A DNA stretch of 64,000 nucleotides from an uncultured Acidobacteriota bacterium (lineage in GTDB: Bacteria; Acidobacteriota; Vicinamibacteria; Vicinamibacterales; Fen-181): contig CAWEZL010000001.1 in NCBI GenBank assembly GCA_963813585.1, forward strand, positions 504,487 through 568,486, written 5' to 3'. Shown here one piece after another: positions 33,028 through 39,991 of the stretch. The notes beneath the pieces are model-generated. The model was not told where the DNA came from, ran no database searches, and saw only the letters and a list, made by a program, of their open reading frames with translations. How positions within the stretch are numbered: position 1 is the stretch's first letter; every line of letters starts with the position of its first letter. The translations under genes and the position numbers were made by a program.

Positions 33028-34641
33028 TTAGTGCCACTCCCACTCGATGAAGCCCGGCTTGACGTCCACCATGGCGTTGACGATCAGCTCGACCAGCCCG
33101 CCGTAGAGGATCCGGTGCTTCTCCCACAGGCCGTAGTAGGCGAGCATGTCGCGGAACTGCCCCTTGCAGTTGCTGCACGGCGCGCAGAGGTACTTCGGAA
33201 TCGACGGGTCGAGGCAGTCGGCGAACGCGTTGAGCATCTGCTCGAGCTTCTTGCGCCCCGCCACCTGGAAGCGCCAGTCGGGGAAGTTGTGGCCGCTCAT
33301 GATGGCGAAGCCGCTGCCGCCGCCGCAGCAGTAGTTGTCCACGCCGTGCGGCGTCATCTCCCGGAACTGCGGGCAGATCGCGCGCAGCGATCTCGCGCTG
33401 CGGCTCGACGACGCCCATCAGGCGCACCATGTTGCACGGGTCGTGCAGGGTCACCGGGAAGTCGTTGCGCGACGGGTCGAGCTTCAGCCGGCCGCTCGTC
33501 ACGATGTCGCGCAGCAGCGTCAGGAGCTCTCGCGCGGGATGTTCGAGGTCGCCGGTGAGGACGCGGTCGGCGACGACGGACAGCGCCTTGTGCGCGTGGC
33601 CGCACTCGCCGAGCACGATCTTCTTCACCTTCAGCTTGCGCGCCGCCTCGGCGTGCTTGATCGCCACGCGCGCGAACTGCGCGTCGTCGTACCAGAGGCC
33701 GTAGTTGATCGAGTCGTAGCCGGCGAGCTCGGACGACAGCGTCCACGAGATGCCGGCGGCGTTGAGGATCACGGCGAAGGCGCCCGGGTTCTCGGGCCAC
33801 GCCATGATCTCGCCGGCGTTGTGGATCAGCAGGACGTCGGCGCCCTCCACGTCCCAGGGCGTCTTCGACGTCGAGGCCCGTCTTCTCGCTGATGTCCTCG
33901 TCGATGAACTCGATGTTGTCCTTGACCACGGCCGGCGTCATGCCGGTGGACGAGCCCGACCTTGAGCTGCAGCATCGAGCCGTTCGTCGTGCAGCTCCTT
34001 CGGCGCGATCCCCATCTCCTGGCTGAACAGCTTGCGCAGTTCGTGCGCGATCAGGCCGTTGTCGGCGCCGATCGGGCAGGTCTGCGCGCAGCGGCGGCAC
34101 AGGTTGCAGCGGTAGGCCAGCTCGGCGAGCCGCGCGACGAGGGGCCAGTTCAGGTCGATGTCGCCGTGCTGCCACGCGGCGAGCAGGCCGCCGTTCCGCA
34201 CGTGCTTGAAGTAGAGGCGGCGCAGGATCTCGGAGCGGTAGGTCGGGCGGTAGATCTCGTTCGCCGCCGCTCGCCTCGAAGATGTGGCAGGCCTCGGAGC
34301 AGGTCTGGCACTTCGCGCAGTGCTCCATCGTGAGCAGCAGCGGCTGCGAGGAACGTCCAGTTGTTCTCGCGCTCGAACAGCTTGTCGAGGCCCGAGAGGA
34401 AGCGCCCGACCAGCGCCCGCTCCTCGTCCGGCCCCGCGGGCACCGGGAGGTTCAGGGCGAGCGTGCCGTCGAGCGCGCCGTCGTACCGTTCGCGCGCCTG
34501 ATCGGCGAGCGGCGCGAACGCCCTCAGCGCGGCCGGGTCGTCGAGCGGCGGGGGCAGCGGCGCCAGCTCCGCGCGGTCGATGCGCGTCACCTCGCCGCGC
34601 TCGCGGCGGGCGAGGTCTGAGATGCGCGTCGGGCCGCTCAT
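33028..34641 (-). pseudogene. DsrK/HdrD-like iron-sulfur (CCG-domain) protein, interrupted by six +1 frameshifts
   Basis: The pieces, read by hand across three frames, are:
- MSGPTRISDL...FERENNWTFL
- QPLLLTMEHCAKCQTCSEACHIFEASGG
- NEIYRPTYRSE...YRCNLCRRCAQTCPIGADN...PKELHD
- NGSMLQLKVG
- SSTGMTPAVVKDNIEFIDEDISEKTGLDV
- KTPWDVEGADVLLIHNAGE...VEPQREI
- LRAICPQFREMTPHGVDNYCCGGGSG...EWEWH
The breaks lie at about 34347, 34262, 33985, 33955, 33866 and 33388. Confidence 0.8.
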
Positions 34642-35555
34642 CGGTGCCCTCCACGCGTGGGGTCGCCGGCCGCGACGTCGCGCCACGTCCGGGTGCCGTC
34701 GGCCTGGACGTGCGGCGCCGACCACGTGGGGCGATAGGTGAGGTACTCGGTCATCTTCGCGCGCACCCGCTCGCTCGCCGGCCCGTCGTCCCACCGGACT
34801 CCGTGATACGTGAACCACTTCCCCACGAAGTGCGACATGTGGGTCAGCGGGACGTAGGCGGCCGTCAGCGCGGCGAGCGCGAGGCCAACCGCGAGCACCG
34901 GGTGCAGCGGCGCCGCCGTGTCGAAGCGAACCACGTGCGCCGCCACGACGAGGGCCGGCGCCGGCTCGATGAGAAAGCCCACCCCAACCAGCGGCAGGAC
35001 GCCCGCGAACAGCGCCAGGTTGAAGTAATCGGCCGGCGCGGAATAGGCGGCCAGCTTCGGATCCGTCAGGCGCGCGTGCAGCAGCGCCAGCGCGCCCCCC
35101 GTCCCGAGCACGACGCCAGCGCCGCCCAGCAGGCCCCAGGCCACGGTCGCCGCCCGCGCGGCCCGCGCACCGAGTGGCGCGCCGACCAGGTCGACGAGCG
35201 CGCCCGCCCCGGCCAGGGCGGCGGCAGCGACGACGAGGTAGAGCCCCAGGTGGAAGGGGTACGAGCGGTACCAAAGCGGGCGATTGTGGCGGCGGAGGCC
35301 GGCCAGCAGCAGCATCTCGGGCAGCATGCAGGCCAGCTCGCCCCGCAGGTTTCTTCTCTGCGGCCTCGTCCACCAGTCGGGCTCCTCGTAGCGGGAGCCG
35401 CCGTGGGCGGTCCGCCCGGGCGCCTCGTGGGGGACGGGGTACAGTTCCCAGCGCAGGTGCACCGGGGCACGCGCGTACCGCACCGCCCGGACGGCGGTCG
35501 CCGCGGCGAACACCCCGAGTCCCAGCCAGATCAGCAGGAAGGAAAGACCCGTCAC
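34638..35555 (-). CDS. DsrM/NarI-like integral membrane (heme b-type) subunit
   Basis: The GTG start at 35555 overlaps the dsrC stop (GTGA), and the stop overlaps the dsrK-like ATG (ATGA). 305 aa, polytopic, opening VTGLSFLLIWLGLGVFAAATAVRAVRYARAPVHLRWELYPVPHE. Confidence 0.65.
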   Translation of the reverse strand: MTGLSFLLIWLGLGVFAAATAVRAVRYARAPVHLRWELYPVPHEAPGRTAHGGSRYEEPDWWTRPQRRNLRGELACMLPEMLLLAGLRRHNRPLWYRSYPFHLGLYLVVAAAALAGAGALVDLVGAPLGARAARAATVAWGLLGGAGVVLGTGGALALLHARLTDPKLAAYSAPADYFNLALFAGVLPLVGVGFLIEPAPALVVAAHVVRFDTAAPLHPVLAVGLALAALTAAYVPLTHMSHFVGKWFTYHGVRWDDGPASERVRAKMTEYLTYRPTWSAPHVQADGTRTWRDVAAGDPTRGGHR

Positions 35556-35869
35556 ACGCACCCGGTGGGCTTGGGAAGCCCGGCCACCTTGCAGGCGCCC
35601 GTCGCGGGCCCCGACGGGAACATGTCGTAGATCTGCGCCAGCTTGAAGCCGGTTTCCTTGCAGAGCTTGCGGATCATCGGCGCCATGCCGAACTGGAGGT
35701 AATACCCGCGGAGGTAGTGCACCACCTTCCACTGGTCCTCGCTCAGCCCGCTGATGCCCTCGGTCGTGGCGAGGTCCTGCGCGACCTCCTGGTTCCAGGT
35801 GGCCGGGTCTTCAAGGAACCCGTCCTCGTCCACCGCGTACGTCCGCCCGTTCAAAACGATGGTTGCCAT
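35552..35869 (-). CDS. dsrC: DsrC (TusE/DsrC/DsvC family) sulfur-relay protein with both C-terminal cysteines
   Basis: 105 aa ending ...GACKVAGLPKPTGCV. It has the penultimate Cys plus a second Cys 11 positions upstream (10 residues between), which is the DsrC-type arm. Confidence 0.85.
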   Translation of the reverse strand: MATIVLNGRTYAVDEDGFLEDPATWNQEVAQDLATTEGISGLSEDQWKVVHYLRGYYLQFGMAPMIRKLCKETGFKLAQIYDMFPSGPATGACKVAGLPKPTGCV

Positions 35870-35875
35870 GTATTT

Positions 35876-35943
35876 GGGGTCAGGTCTTGCATTTCAGCAT
35901 TTCAGCCGGAAGGCTGAAATGCTGAAATGCAAGACCTGACCCC
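35876..35943. repeat. perfect 32-bp/32-bp inverted repeat with GGAA loop (68 nt, AT-rich)
   Basis: The sequence is ggggtcaggtcttgcatttcagcatttcagcc-ggaa-ggctgaaatgctgaaatgcaagacctgacccc; I checked the arms base by base. It sits between the SIS-gene stop (35952-35954) and the dsrC ATG (35869). Confidence 0.95.
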
Positions 35944-35951
35944 ACCTCCTC

Positions 35952-36995
35952 CTACGTCGTCTTCGTCACCTTGTTCAGGCCGCGGGGCTGGTCGGGGTCG
36001 AACCCGCGCAGCCGGCTCAGGTGGAACGCGAGCAGCTGGCCGGGCACCACCGCCGGGATCGGCGACAGCCACTCGGGCAGCCCCTGCGGCAGCGGCAGCG
36101 GCGCAGCGGCCAACGACAGCGACGAGGGGATGTTCGACAGCACCGCCGGCCGGGCACCGCGTCCGACCATCGCACGCAGCAGCGCCTCGACCTCCTCGCT
36201 CACCGCCCCCGCCACGTTCACCACCACCGCGGCGAAGCCGGTCTCGACCAGCGCCATCGGCCCGTGCTGGAAGTCCGCGGCCGAGTACGGCTCGACCGCC
36301 ACGTAGGCCAGCTCCTTCGCCTTCAGCGACACCTCGAAGGCGGTCGCGTAATTGTAACCGCGACCGATCACCACGCCGTGGCCGGCGTCCTTCAGCATCT
36401 CGGCCGCGGCACGGGCCTGGTCGCCCAGCTTCAGCACCTCGTCCACCTGGTCCGGCACCTCAGCCAGCTCGGACCACCGCCGGTCGTCGCCGCCGAGCGC
36501 CGCCGACAGCATCGCGATCGTCATCAGCTGGGCCGTATACGTCTTGGTCGCCGCGATGCTCCGCTCCTGGCCGGCGCCGAGCAGCAGCGTGTGGTCGGCC
36601 GCCCGCGTGATCGGCGACCCTTCCACGTTGGTGATCGCCAGGGTCGGGCACCCCTGCCGGCGCCCCTCCTCGACCACCGCCACCAGGTCGGGCGACTCGC
36701 CCGACTGCGAGATGCCGACGACCAGCGCGCCGTGCAGCCGCGGCGGCGACTGGTACCGGGTGAACAGCGACGGGGTGGCCAGCCCCACGTTCAGGCCGTT
36801 CCGGGCGCCGAGCACGTACTGCGCGTAACGGGCAGCGTTGTCGGACGACCCGCGTGCCGCGATGAGGACGCTGGTGAGGCCGCGACCGGCGAGCGCGCCA
36901 GCCACGTTGCGCACCTCGCCCTCGCGGTCGTGCAGCAGCCGCCGCAGCACGTCGGGTTGTTCGTCGATTTCCGAGAGAAGAGTCGAGTCGGTCAT
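35952..36995 (-). CDS. SIS-domain sugar-phosphate isomerase/aminotransferase-like protein (GlmS isomerase-domain type)
   Basis: 347 aa with two SIS repeats (IAARGSSDNAARYAQY...GISQSGESPD). Confidence 0.8.
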   Translation of the reverse strand: MTDSTLLSEIDEQPDVLRRLLHDREGEVRNVAGALAGRGLTSVLIAARGSSDNAARYAQYVLGARNGLNVGLATPSLFTRYQSPPRLHGALVVGISQSGESPDLVAVVEEGRRQGCPTLAITNVEGSPITRAADHTLLLGAGQERSIAATKTYTAQLMTIAMLSAALGGDDRRWSELAEVPDQVDEVLKLGDQARAAAEMLKDAGHGVVIGRGYNYATAFEVSLKAKELAYVAVEPYSAADFQHGPMALVETGFAAVVVNVAGAVSEEVEALLRAMVGRGARPAVLSNIPSSLSLAAAPLPLPQGLPEWLSPIPAVVPGQLLAFHLSRLRGFDPDQPRGLNKVTKTT

Positions 36996-37122
36996 ATCGG
37001 CGAATCATACCCCGGCTGGCTTGCCTCGCCGTAGCGCCCGGCGGATCCCGGGCGCAAAGGCGGCTGGCTTGCGAGTCGCGGCCGGGCCGGGGTACGCTCA
37101 CGCTGCTTTCACTGGAGAGGTC

Positions 37123-38799
37123 ATGTCCTCCACGCTCGTCGAATGCGTCCCGAACTTCTCGGAAGGCCGTAACCGCGCCGTCATCGACGCGATCGCCGAC
37201 GCCATCAGGGGGGTTGGCGGCGTGAAGCTGCTCGACGTGGACCCCGGCGCCGACACCAACCGCACCGTCTACACCTTCGTCGGCCCGCCCGGCGCGGTGG
37301 CCGACGCGGCCGTCAAGGCGGCGCAGAAGGCCTACGAGCTGATCGACATGAGCCGCCACACCGGCGCCCACCCGCGGATCGGCGCGCTCGACGTCTGCCC
37401 CATCGTCCCCATCGCCGGCGTCACGATGGAGGAGTGCGCCGGGATCGCCCGCGGCATCGGCCGGCGGATCGGCGAGGCGCTCCAGGTCCCGGTCTACTTC
37501 TACGAGCACGCGGCCAGCTCCTCCGCCCGCCGCAGCCTGGCCGACGTCCGCGCCGGCGAGTACGAGGGGCTGGAGCGCAAGCTCCAGGATGCCGCCTGGG
37601 CGCCCGACGCCGGGCCGGCCCGGTTCGACCCGCGCTATGGCGCCTCGGTCGTCGGCGCGCGCGAGTTCCTCATCGCCTACAACGTCAACCTGAACACCCG
37701 CGACCGCAAGCTGGCCAACGAGATCGCCCTCAACATCCGCGAGAACGGCCGCCTGGCCCGCGATGCCCGCGGTAACCTCGTCACGGACGCCGAGGGGAAG
37801 CAGGTGCGGGCGCCTGGCCGCCTTCGCGCCGTCCGCGCGATCGGGTGGTACATCGAGCAGTACCGCCAGGCGCAGGTGTCGATCAACCTGATCGACTACA
37901 AGGTGACGCCGCTGCACGTCGTGTTCGAGACCGTGCGCGAGGAAGCGGCGAAGCTCGGGCTGCGCGTCACCGGCTCCGAGCTGGTCGGCCTGATGCCGCT
38001 GCAGCCGCTGCTCGACGCCGGCCGCTTCTACCTCCGCAGGCAGGGGAAGTCGGCGGGCGTGCCCGAGGTCGAGCTCGTCGAGCTGGCCGCCCGGTCGCTC
38101 GGCCTCGACCAGCTCGCCCCGTTCGACCCGGCGAAGAAGGTGATCGAGTATCAGTTCCGGTCGCGCGGCCCGCTGGTCGCGATGCCCGTCGATCGCTTCG
38201 TGGACGAGGTGTCGTCCGAGTCGCCCGCCCCCGGCGGCGGATCGGTGTCGGCGCTCGCCGGCGCGCTCGCCGCGGCGCTGGCCGCGATGGTCGCCAACCT
38301 CACCGTGGGCAAGAAGGGGTACGAGGCCGCGTGGGACGAGCTGTCCGGGGTCGCCGCGCAGGCGCAGGCGGTGAAGGACCGCCTGGTGCGGGCCGTGGAC
38401 CAGGACACCGAGGCGTTCAACGCGGTGCTCGCCGCCAACCGCATGCCGAAGGGGACCGACGCCGAGCGGGCCGCGCGCGACGCCGCCATCGAGGCCGGGT
38501 ACCAGCAGGCCACCGGCGTGCCCCTCGCGACCGCCAAGGCGTGCCTCGAGGCGCTGAAGCTGGCGCGGGTAGCCGCCGCCCGGGGCAACCGCAACTCGGC
38601 GTCCGATGCCGGCGTCGCCGCCCTGATGGCGCGAGCCGGCGTCGAGGGCAGCGTGCTGAACGTCCTCATCAACCTGGGGTCGGTCAAGGACGCGGGCTTC
38701 GCCCAGGCCTGCCGTGGCGAGACCGAGGGGCTCGTGGCCGAGGCCAACGCCCTCTGCGCGCGCGTCGTCGGCGACGTGAAGGACACCTTCGAGGGATGA
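37123..38799 (+). CDS. ftcD: bifunctional glutamate formimidoyltransferase / formiminotetrahydrofolate cyclodeaminase
   Basis: Start moved to the ATG at 37123, after SD GGAGAGG. The formimidoyltransferase domain opens LVECVPNFSEGRN...HTGAHPRIGALDV. The C-terminal cyclodeaminase domain has ESPAPGGGSVSALAGALAAAL. Confidence 0.85.
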   Translation: MSSTLVECVPNFSEGRNRAVIDAIADAIRGVGGVKLLDVDPGADTNRTVYTFVGPPGAVADAAVKAAQKAYELIDMSRHTGAHPRIGALDVCPIVPIAGVTMEECAGIARGIGRRIGEALQVPVYFYEHAASSSARRSLADVRAGEYEGLERKLQDAAWAPDAGPARFDPRYGASVVGAREFLIAYNVNLNTRDRKLANEIALNIRENGRLARDARGNLVTDAEGKQVRAPGRLRAVRAIGWYIEQYRQAQVSINLIDYKVTPLHVVFETVREEAAKLGLRVTGSELVGLMPLQPLLDAGRFYLRRQGKSAGVPEVELVELAARSLGLDQLAPFDPAKKVIEYQFRSRGPLVAMPVDRFVDEVSSESPAPGGGSVSALAGALAAALAAMVANLTVGKKGYEAAWDELSGVAAQAQAVKDRLVRAVDQDTEAFNAVLAANRMPKGTDAERAARDAAIEAGYQQATGVPLATAKACLEALKLARVAAARGNRNSASDAGVAALMARAGVEGSVLNVLINLGSVKDAGFAQACRGETEGLVAEANALCARVVGDVKDTFEG

Positions 38800-39991
38800 C
38801 GGGGCGGTGCAGTGGCGCGGCGCCGCCGCGGTCCCCGTCAACCCCGAGATGCCCGCCGAGCAGATCGCGCGACGTATGGCAGCTACCGGCGCCGCCAGGC
38901 ACCACCAGCTCGACGCGCGACATCACGGCCCCCTCGAGCACCCGGTCCACCACGTCCATCCCCCGCACGACCTCCGCGAACACCGTGTAGTCGTGATCCA
39001 GGCGCGGAGAGTCCACCAGGTTCACGTAGATCTGCGCGTCGCCGGTGTGGCGCCCGCGTGTCGAGATGCCCAGCGTTCCCCGGCGCTGCGGGAATCGCCC
39101 CACCTCGTCGCGCATGTAGCGGTCGTGGCCGGCGAACTCGTTCGCCCCGGGGCTGCCCCCCTGGATGACGAAGTTGGGGACGACCCGGTGGAACGTGAGC
39201 CCGTCGTAGTAACCGATCTCGGCGAGCCGCGCGACCCTCAGGCACGCGAGCGGCGCCTCGCCGGGCAGCAGGCGCGCATCGAACGACCCCAGGCGCTCGA
39301 GGGTCACCCTGAGCACCTTTCCCTCGAGCCGGGCCAGCAGCGCCTCGTCGACAGGCTCGGCGAACGCCGCGGCGGGGACGGAGGCCTCGGCCCGCTGCCC
39401 GGTCCCCGAGGCGGGCGCGTCCAATCCCAGCTCCTTGAGCCGTTCGAGCAGCGCCGCGCGAGCATCGCGCGCCGTGTCGCTCCGCGTGGCGGTGAGGCGC
39501 TGGAGCGACGCGAGCAGCGCGGGGATGGCGCGGGGCGTTCCCTTCAGCGCCGCGGCAGCCGCCATCACGAGCTGGTGGTCGGTCGACTCGAGGGCGGTGA
39601 GATACACCTCGTCGGCCTGGTGGCCAATCGTCGCCGACAACCCGGTCACCGCCGCCTCGCGCACGTTCGCGTGCACGTCGGCGGCAAGCCGGCGCAGGGT
39701 GTCCTCGTCGCGCACGAGTGCCGCCCCGCGCGCCGCGTACACCCGCGCCTGCCAGGGCTCCGCCCGCGAGGCGCGGACGACGAGCGGACGTGCCCGGCCG
39801 GGCGCGACGGCGGCCAGCGCCACCAGCGCGTGGGCGCCGCGGTGCCACGCGGCCGGCGTGGCGTCCTCCACCTCGCGGGCGAGCAGAGGCGCGCGGCTCG
39901 CCCCGCACGCCGCCAGCAGGTCGATCGCGAGCAGCGCCACGTGGCCGTCCGTGTCGCGAGTGCGGCGCACCGCTGCCTCGCACGTCCGCAT
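38684..39991 (-). CDS. HEAT-repeat protein with C-terminal cyclophilin-type peptidyl-prolyl isomerase domain
   Basis: The cyclophilin core is YYDGLTFHRVVPNFVIQGGSP...TVFAEVVRGMDVVDRV. The last ~70 codons are Arg/Pro-rich, overlap the ftcD 3' end by 116 nt and look like read-through. The start has no properly spaced SD, so this may be the distal part of the upstream HEAT gene. Confidence 0.65.
   Translation of the reverse strand: MRTCEAAVRRTRDTDGHVALLAIDLLAACGASRAPLLAREVEDATPAAWHRGAHALVALAAVAPGRARPLVVRASRAEPWQARVYAARGAALVRDEDTLRRLAADVHANVREAAVTGLSATIGHQADEVYLTALESTDHQLVMAAAAALKGTPRAIPALLASLQRLTATRSDTARDARAALLERLKELGLDAPASGTGQRAEASVPAAAFAEPVDEALLARLEGKVLRVTLERLGSFDARLLPGEAPLACLRVARLAEIGYYDGLTFHRVVPNFVIQGGSPGANEFAGHDRYMRDEVGRFPQRRGTLGISTRGRHTGDAQIYVNLVDSPRLDHDYTVFAEVVRGMDVVDRVLEGAVMSRVELVVPGGAGSCHTSRDLLGGHLGVDGDRGGAAPLHRPVIPRRCPSRRRRRARRGRWPRPRAPRSRHGRPGRSPRP

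Follow-up and report, generated by a model that had tools for sequence, protein, structure and literature searches.

Ribosome-binding sites (RBSs) whose two halves are joined by RNA structure are known from bacteriophage T4, where they were reportedly studied by Nivinskas et al. in 1999 and by Malys and Nivinskas in 2009. In T4 gene 38, a structure between the Shine–Dalgarno (SD) sequence and the AUG cuts the spacing from 22 to 5 nt, and in gene 25, located at the intercistronic junction of genes 26 and 25, the spacing is reduced by structure from 27 to 11 nt (PMC3014915). A possible counterpart was found upstream of dsrC in a 64,000-nt stretch of DNA from an uncultured Acidobacteriota bacterium (the window; GenBank assembly GCA_963813585.1, contig CAWEZL010000001.1, positions 504,487–568,486, on a 5.35-Mb contig), where a perfect palindrome lies between the SD sequence and the start codon and is predicted to fold into a hairpin that probably reunites both halves of the dsrC ribosome site. 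As in T4 genes 38 and 25, the linear distance from SD to AUG is too great and a stem-loop would restore a functional one; as in gene 25, the site lies at an intercistronic junction, here between an SIS-domain gene (SIS) and dsrC; and in both systems the arrangement is confined to one subclade of relatives. The T4 stems are short, whereas here the spacing would fall from 75 to 5–7 nt through a perfect 33-bp palindrome of −66 kcal/mol. The dsrC case also differs in being in a bacterial chromosome, in having arms that are frozen in sequence across lineages and in being known from sequence alone. By this analogy a structure-bridged dsrC RBS would be of a known kind, and what appears to set it apart is the unexplained freezing of the arm sequence.

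On the coding (minus) strand, in window coordinates, the junction is made up of the following features.

35952..36995, minus strand: SIS gene, 347 aa, double-SIS protein, GlmS C-terminal/NagB-II-like (open reading frame list; Pfam SIS, E = 5e-30)
35954-35952, minus strand: SIS stop codon, TAG (sequence)
35951-35945, minus strand: GAGGAGG, SD-like, immediately 3' of the SIS stop codon and ending one base before the 32-nt arm
35912..35944, minus strand: 5' arm of the hairpin, U plus GGGGUCAGGUCUUGCAUUUCAGCAUUUCAGCC, 33 nt, 100 % complementary (repeat search; fold)
35908..35911, minus strand: tetraloop, UUCC on the mRNA and GGAA on the plus strand (sequence; fold)
35875..35907, minus strand: 3' arm of the hairpin, GGCUGAAAUGCUGAAAUGCAAGACCUGACCCC plus A (repeat search; fold)
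35870..35875, minus strand: A-rich spacer AAAUAC between stem and AUG, the first A of which can pair with U35944 (sequence)
35552..35869, minus strand: dsrC, 105 aa, start codon ATG at 35869-35867 (Pfam DsrC, E = 1e-35; TIGR03342)

The initial annotation of this DNA had given the order TAG, GAGGAGG, T, arm–loop–arm, AAATAC and ATG, which was found as described. It had also reported a 32-bp stem with a GGAA loop: the stem is indeed perfect, the T and A flanking the 32-nt arms of the 68-nt palindrome supplying a 33rd pair, but the loop had been taken from the antisense strand. The mRNA loop is UUCC, so the argument that a GNRA-type loop stabilizes the hairpin is inapplicable to the SIS–dsrC mRNA. 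A repeat search placed the 33-bp stem and its 4-nt loop at 35875–35944, with arms 100 % complementary. The RNA fold that had been suggested for this region gave the full stem, with a minimum free energy (MFE) of −71.7 kcal/mol in its 121-nt context (z = −10.4, with 0 of 200 shuffled sequences as good). The hairpin alone was predicted at −65.8 kcal/mol, both the MFE and the centroid structure containing the full stem, and its DNA fold at −44.2 kcal/mol (z = −14). The second-longest perfect hairpin in the window has only 13 bp. The arms had been called AT-rich and internally duplicated, which agrees with a G+C content of 53 %, compared with 71 % in the window, and with the presence of the 8-nt GCATTTCA twice in tandem. 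The palindrome as a whole holds four TGAAATGC units, two direct and two inverted. Rfam 15, searched on both strands, returned only sub-threshold matches to generic microRNA-precursor hairpins and no gathering-level match anywhere in the window, and a tRNA search found none.

The SD lies 75 nt from the AUG in the linear sequence and about 5–7 nt from it with the stem closed, and AAAUAC alone intervenes between hairpin and ATG, with no SD-like motif; both statements had been made earlier (with a closed distance of about 7 nt), and both hold. Closing the hairpin was predicted to leave the SD (mean unpaired probability 0.72) and the spacer plus AUG (0.64) mostly single-stranded. The identification of dsrC also stood, since in addition to the Pfam and TIGR03342 matches both conserved C-terminal cysteines are present; homologues align from residue 1. 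Species-representative genomes supplied 77 dsrC homologues for comparison: in 69 an SD core, mostly AGGAGG and at least 5 nt long, lies 4–11 nt upstream of the start codon (mode 6–8), five have a 4-nt core, and three have no SD, two of these being sister lineages that carry another hairpin family (see below). In silico removal of the 68 nt from the 82-nt SIS–dsrC intergenic region (IGR) leaves TAGGAGGAGGTAAATACATG, that is AGGAGG, 7 nt and ATG, a typical dsrC RBS.

The best-supported reading among those considered, on the predicted structures, is that a canonical dsrC RBS has been split by a palindrome and is bridged by folding, the palindrome having been generated locally and kept perfect by template switching; taken as a whole, this reading is tentative and falls slightly short of an even chance. 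In the SIS–dsrC mRNA the palindrome would fold co-transcriptionally into the 33-bp hairpin and would then be effectively permanently closed. The SD, overlapping the SIS stop, and the AUG would be left single-stranded at the base of the helix, about 5–7 nt apart across the junction, forming a split RBS of the T4 gene 25/38 type between two cistrons. Given this bridged geometry, dsrC and the downstream dsrM/K-like genes could still be translated, either through 30S binding or through re-initiation after termination on SIS.

The hairpin is present, and identical, in a second strain assembly (ENA ERZ25039513 contig_6771, 1.6 Mb; L001), which is identical to the window over 34619–37311 and different elsewhere. 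In the Logan short-read run ERR10755943 the SIS contig breaks off within the 5' arm and the dsrC contig (L002) begins within the 3' arm, which is the k-mer break expected at a palindrome. An assembly artefact was ruled out by the two strain assemblies together with this run. The nearest DsrC relatives in species-representative genomes were from Vicinamibacterales, Acidobacteriota.

Two further genes follow dsrC.

34638..35555, minus strand: 305-aa membrane protein, DsrM-like, overlapping the dsrC stop by 4 nt (gene call on L001)
33028..34641, minus strand: DsrK-like iron–sulfur (Fe-S)/CCG protein, 535 aa in the other strain (NCBIfam DsrK, 314 bits, cut-off 400)

The 305-aa protein gave a weak NarI/DsrM match in Pfam (E = 0.017) and reached no Pfam or NCBIfam family at threshold, and the DsrK-like protein also matched Pfam Fer4_8 and CCG. 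The SIS protein, which was also gene-called on the public contig, matched GlmS/NagB-II-like NCBIfam models below their cut-offs. The dsrC, 305-aa and 535-aa genes form a cassette between SIS and a TP_methylase gene that was found only in the subclade with SIS proteins 91–93 % identical to the window's. In outgroups (SIS 84–86 % identical; L099–L102) SIS is followed directly by TP_methylase, with 3 nt between them in L099 and L100, and the hairpin thus marks the boundary of a cassette that was gained or lost. The IGR between dsrK and TP_methylase, examined for a repeat at the other cassette boundary, showed no similarity to the palindrome. The DsrK-like alleles of the window and L001 are separated by 76 substitutions and ten 1-nt indels (33092–34618), with 34 substitutions at third, 29 at first and 13 at second codon positions, a weak third-position bias; the gene is frameshifted in the window and intact (535 aa) on L001, and the adjoining 2.7 kb are 100 % identical. 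The window allele is either a pseudogene or a strain-mixture consensus artefact of the 5.35-Mb assembly.

Within the subclade the SIS–dsrC spacer is hypervariable. The split-RBS arrangement was found in one further lineage (L124), and five other sister lineages have unrelated sequence at this position, without the palindrome. The IGRs of these relatives are as follows.

L088: SIS–dsrC IGR of 89 nt, GCCGCAA three times, no exceptional fold (z −0.15)
L096: SIS–dsrC IGR with a short G+C-rich stem, no exceptional fold (z +0.26)
L089/L004, L003/L114, L120 and L104: IGRs of 96–185 nt with 1.5 to 3 tandem copies of a hairpin with a 15-bp stem, GGGGCCGTACCGGAA ... TTCCGGTACGGCCCC
Positions of the 15-bp-stem hairpin repeats: L089 3545-3640; L114 2545-2675; L120 2545-2655; L104 2545-2729

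In the family with 15-bp stems (GGGGCCGTACCGGAA/TTCCGGTACGGCCCC) the stems are conserved and the loops variable, each loop having an SD-like AGGUGA, and the lineages that carry it have no canonical SD beside the dsrC ATG. Similarity of the palindrome to the GGGGCCGTACC hairpin family or to other sister IGRs was not significant (p = 0.08–0.65), and a 9-mer shared with the L088 IGR was marginal (p about 0.03–0.04). The end of the L096 Logan contig (about 1514–1538) is Illumina adapter (AGATCGGAAGAGCGTCGTGTAGGGA), indicating adapter contamination.

L124 (JGI 3300039415) carries the same palindrome in a SIS–dsrC IGR that is again 82 nt long and reads TAG GGGAGGC, arm, GAAA, complementary arm, CAAATAC ATG. 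GGAGG still adjoins the stem and (C)AAAUAC–AUG is kept after it; removal of the palindrome leaves GGAGG, 8 nt and ATG, and the AUG was predicted to be open with the hairpin closed. Both 32-nt arms are identical to those of the window (64/64 positions), the 5' arm sequence being unchanged in L001, L097 and L124. The arms are flanked by T and A in the window and by C on both sides in L124, and the sense loop of L124, GAAA, departs at one position from the reverse complement of UUCC. The flanking genes have diverged: the SIS proteins are 92 % identical, and synonymous divergence (dS) and the ratio of non-synonymous to synonymous divergence (dN/dS) were, respectively, 0.27 and 0.16 for SIS, 0.31 and 0.15 for dsrC, and 0.42 and 0.23 for the 305-aa gene. 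At these values both dsrC and the 305-aa gene have evolved under purifying selection between the two lineages with the hairpin. A silent dsrC is at odds with this (dN/dS of 0.15–0.23 for dsrC and the next gene) and with the intact cassette of the sister strain.

The 60 nt on each side of the IGR differ by 12–13 % between the window and L124, with no local dip in divergence, which excludes a recent recombination patch, and the neighbouring FTCD–SIS IGR is only about 65 % identical. At a per-site divergence of 12–30 %, the chance of 32 unchanged positions is 2e-2 to 1e-5 and that of 64 unchanged positions 3e-4 to 1e-10. The match of 32/32 within the stem had been taken to imply a recent origin or selection; as the hairpin is shared by lineages at a dS of about 0.3, it must be of old date or have been gained on two occasions. 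The identity of the arms in spite of this divergence and of the non-sister placement of the two lineages (see below) calls for a constraint on the sequence itself or else for acquisition, whether independent or lateral. A search for more hairpin-bearing lineages through N-terminally extended DsrC calls returned only L124's own protein; the public DsrC call at 2603-2944 in L124 begins with an ATG of the 3' arm, which extends the protein N-terminally by MQDLTPKY to 113 aa, and is an annotation artefact that the palindrome has produced. Upstream of SIS, a −10-like TATGAT lies 8 nt before the ATG, with no SD (36996–37009, minus strand), and counts among the few conserved stretches of an IGR that elsewhere is about 65 % identical to that of L124; this arrangement suggests that the SIS mRNA is leaderless or has a very short leader.

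Template switching is known to homogenize the arms of inverted repeats, to invert their spacers and to create hairpins (PMC8604942, PMC8794818). Its marks at this junction are an 8-nt tandem duplication within the arms, a perfect match of one arm to the other and the loop inverted between lineages, and slippage products (GCCGCAA three times, tandem hairpin units) are found at the same junction in sister IGRs; by analogy, a local, replication-driven origin appears to be the simplest reading of these features. The palindrome would thus have arisen in place and have been kept self-complementary by template switching during replication. The dsrC palindrome resembles repeats described under the Ripley model in its homogenized arms, spacer inversion (UUCC compared with GAAA), slippage-type tandem duplication and formation of a long hairpin de novo, and differs from them in length, since documented arms are mostly 7–16 bp compared with 32–33 bp here (PMC8604942, PMC8794818). 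Template switching explains a perfect stem without selection on every pair, but not the identity between lineages.

Several observations weigh against a split and bridged dsrC site. In L124 the SD was predicted to be mostly paired with a downstream segment (probability unpaired 0.19), and the 33-bp helix far exceeds the T4 precedents in size. SD use in the genome is moderate, with few window genes having a strong SD, and given also the leaderless-looking SIS gene, SD-independent initiation on the A-rich AAAUAC–AUG is possible. The frameshifts in the DsrK-like gene of the window strain may mean that the cassette is decaying there. Neither flanking-gene tree places the window and L124 as sisters: L124 groups with L120/L104 on the SIS side (83 % bootstrap), and the window groups with L088 on the dsrC side (96.5 %). 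Lastly, bridging alone leaves unaccounted for the 0/64 changes in the arms, next to coding sequence that differs by 12–13 % and an IGR that differs by about 35 %; this freezing of the arms across lineages is unexplained by either the split RBS or template switching.

If ribosomes do initiate across the permanently closed 33-bp helix, no other natural insert looped out of a bacterial RBS would come close to it in size. The junction would then be a chromosomal counterpart of T4 genes 25 and 38, informing the steric limits of 30S–mRNA docking and the coupling of termination to re-initiation. In addition, it would offer a clean natural case of template switching at work on a regulatory region, through arm homogenization and loop inversion, and the palindrome marks the junction of a dsrC–dsrMK cassette, read here as recently acquired, in soil Vicinamibacterales, whose sulfur metabolism is poorly known. 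The 64/64 arm identity across diverged lineages is the part likeliest to hide something new. One way to account for it, unlikely but worth setting out, is that the palindrome is a sequence-constrained module with a partner (a protein, a nuclease or a trans-acting nucleic acid) that gates the dsrC–dsrMK cassette from the SIS transcript, or else a new single-site, orientation-flipping mobile hairpin that targets the RBS spacer. A partner that reads sequence would be implied, if the module exists, by two 32-nt arms that stay identical across species-level divergence while the loop flips.

About equally improbable as a full explanation is a role in RNA processing, stability or insulation, in which the 33-bp duplex would be an RNase III site, a 3' stabilizer of the SIS message or a partial terminator without a U-tract, uncoupling the transcript of SIS, a housekeeping gene, from the acquired dsrC–MK cassette, with dsrC translated from processed or read-through RNA without the distant SD. 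Perfect duplexes of more than about 22 bp (about two helical turns) are generic RNase III substrates, and the 33 contiguous Watson–Crick pairs, exceeding this length, make the stem a candidate substrate. Most sister lineages also hold stable hairpins in the same IGR (the 15-bp-stem family, in 1.5 to 3 copies), the junction is a cassette boundary next to which the outgroups have TP_methylase directly, and the modest SD use in the genome would fit translation without an SD. The L088 and L096 IGRs, which lack exceptional structure, do not fit such a role, which moreover does not require 64/64 identity and would make the conserved GGAGG at the base of the stem a coincidence. RNase III hairpins between cistrons, as in phage T7 early mRNAs and rRNA operons, have imperfect stems whose internal loops restrict cleavage to a single strand; the dsrC hairpin shares with them a long double-stranded stem in a polycistronic transcript, but its duplex is perfect and cleavage would part the SD from the AUG. 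An intrinsic terminator as such was rejected, the stem being followed by AAAUAC in the sense direction and by ACCUCCUCC in the antisense direction, with no U-tract on either strand. A consensus scan of 35400–37300 gave no terminator-like site and no promoter that could restart transcription of dsrC, and a manual look for −35 and −10 elements in the AT-rich arms found 3/6-type matches only. The strong terminator proposed by the initial annotation was thus not borne out, and processing, mRNA stabilization and insulation are plausible, on the modelled structure, as roles added or alternative to bridging.

Somewhat less likely still is a small non-autonomous mobile palindrome (REP-, MITE- or PATE-like), that would have entered the RBS spacer of each of the two lineages independently, in opposite orientations, and be tolerated since folding restores the spacing. 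Such insertions would account for arms that are identical at a dS of about 0.3 while the bases just outside differ, for the opposite orientation of the L124 loop, for the placement of the two lineages apart in the flanking-gene trees, for the clean canonical RBS that excision yields and for the different hairpin repeats that other lineages hold in the same IGR. The MITE-like dispersed element suggested earlier was not recovered: no second copy turned up in the window (arm sub-sequences with up to 3 mismatches), at unrelated sites among 124 fetched loci, in 185,579 GTDB species genomes (exact 22-mer), in IMG/VR, or among plasmids and phages (blastn, best E = 0.6); the five matches in JGI metagenomes were all due to chance, on contigs of 32–55 % GC without a hairpin; and a three-frame protein search of 5.8 billion clusters for open reading frames starting or ending in other copies gave three word-sharing candidates, none significant. 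The DNA collections contained neither of the known positives (the window genome and L124) and the host-genome scan covered 64 kb, so there may be a low-copy, lineage-restricted family. No target-site duplication surrounds the palindrome in the window or L124, and no transposase or RAYT was found among the annotated neighbours. In addition, the window and L124 share both flanks (TAGG.GGAGG and AAATACATG) and an 82-nt IGR, which fits one origin. REP/BIME and MITE families (the malE–malF REP, Correia elements and PATEs) have many dispersed copies, usually with imperfect stems, and terminal motifs (e.g. GTAG for REP) or target-site duplications. The dsrC palindrome is like them in being short, non-coding and placed between co-directional genes, where it could stabilize the upstream mRNA, and in the tandem hairpin repeats of its sister lineages at the same place; it is unlike them in the lack, in these searches, of a second copy, target-site duplication, RAYT or transposase.

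A DNA-level protein-binding site (an operator, a roadblock, a recombination site or another sequence-specific target), in which the four TGAAATGC units would be read as double-stranded DNA, is less likely again. The arms are conserved as sequence while the loop and flanks vary, as expected for a symmetric binding site more than for structure alone, and the neighbouring IGR is far less conserved; but 2 × 32 bp far exceeds known operators, conservation extends over the full arm instead of a core, the 8-bp period of the repeats is out of phase with the helix, neither a regulator nor a recombinase gene lies next to the palindrome, and five sister lineages lack the site.

There is similarly little to recommend an essentially neutral lesion that broke the dsrC RBS and crippled a cassette heading for loss, for although the window DsrK-like allele, with its many differences and weak third-position bias, and the absence of the cassette from outgroups would fit, the purifying selection on dsrC and the 305-aa gene (dN/dS of 0.15–0.23), the intact 535-aa DsrK-like gene in the sister strain with an identical hairpin and the 64/64 identity, which would not persist at a dS of about 0.3, all argue against it. 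Integron attC sites are imperfect palindromes with R''/L''–L'/R' boxes (RYYYAAC ... GTTRRRY), extrahelical bases and an integrase or cassette array nearby, and this candidate was rejected, the stem being perfect without bulges, the arms beginning with GGGGTC and ending with GACCCC without a GTTRRRY core, and no integrase being found among the annotated neighbours. RNA thermometers are marginally stable structures that open in the physiological range; 33 perfect pairs at −65.8 kcal/mol cannot melt physiologically, which disposed of the earlier suggestion of a folding- or temperature-sensitive dsrC start.

Elsewhere in the window, an insertion of about 97 nt relative to L001 was seen at about 38801–38900, just past the stop codon of FTCD; the convergent cyclophilin/HEAT gene has an altered 3' end as a result. 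A perfect 23-nt palindrome, GAAATGGGGCC-T-GGCCCCATTTC, occurs twice, 109 nt apart, at 186–208 and 295–316, just downstream of a gene ending at 317, and the two copies resemble a bidirectional terminator pair.

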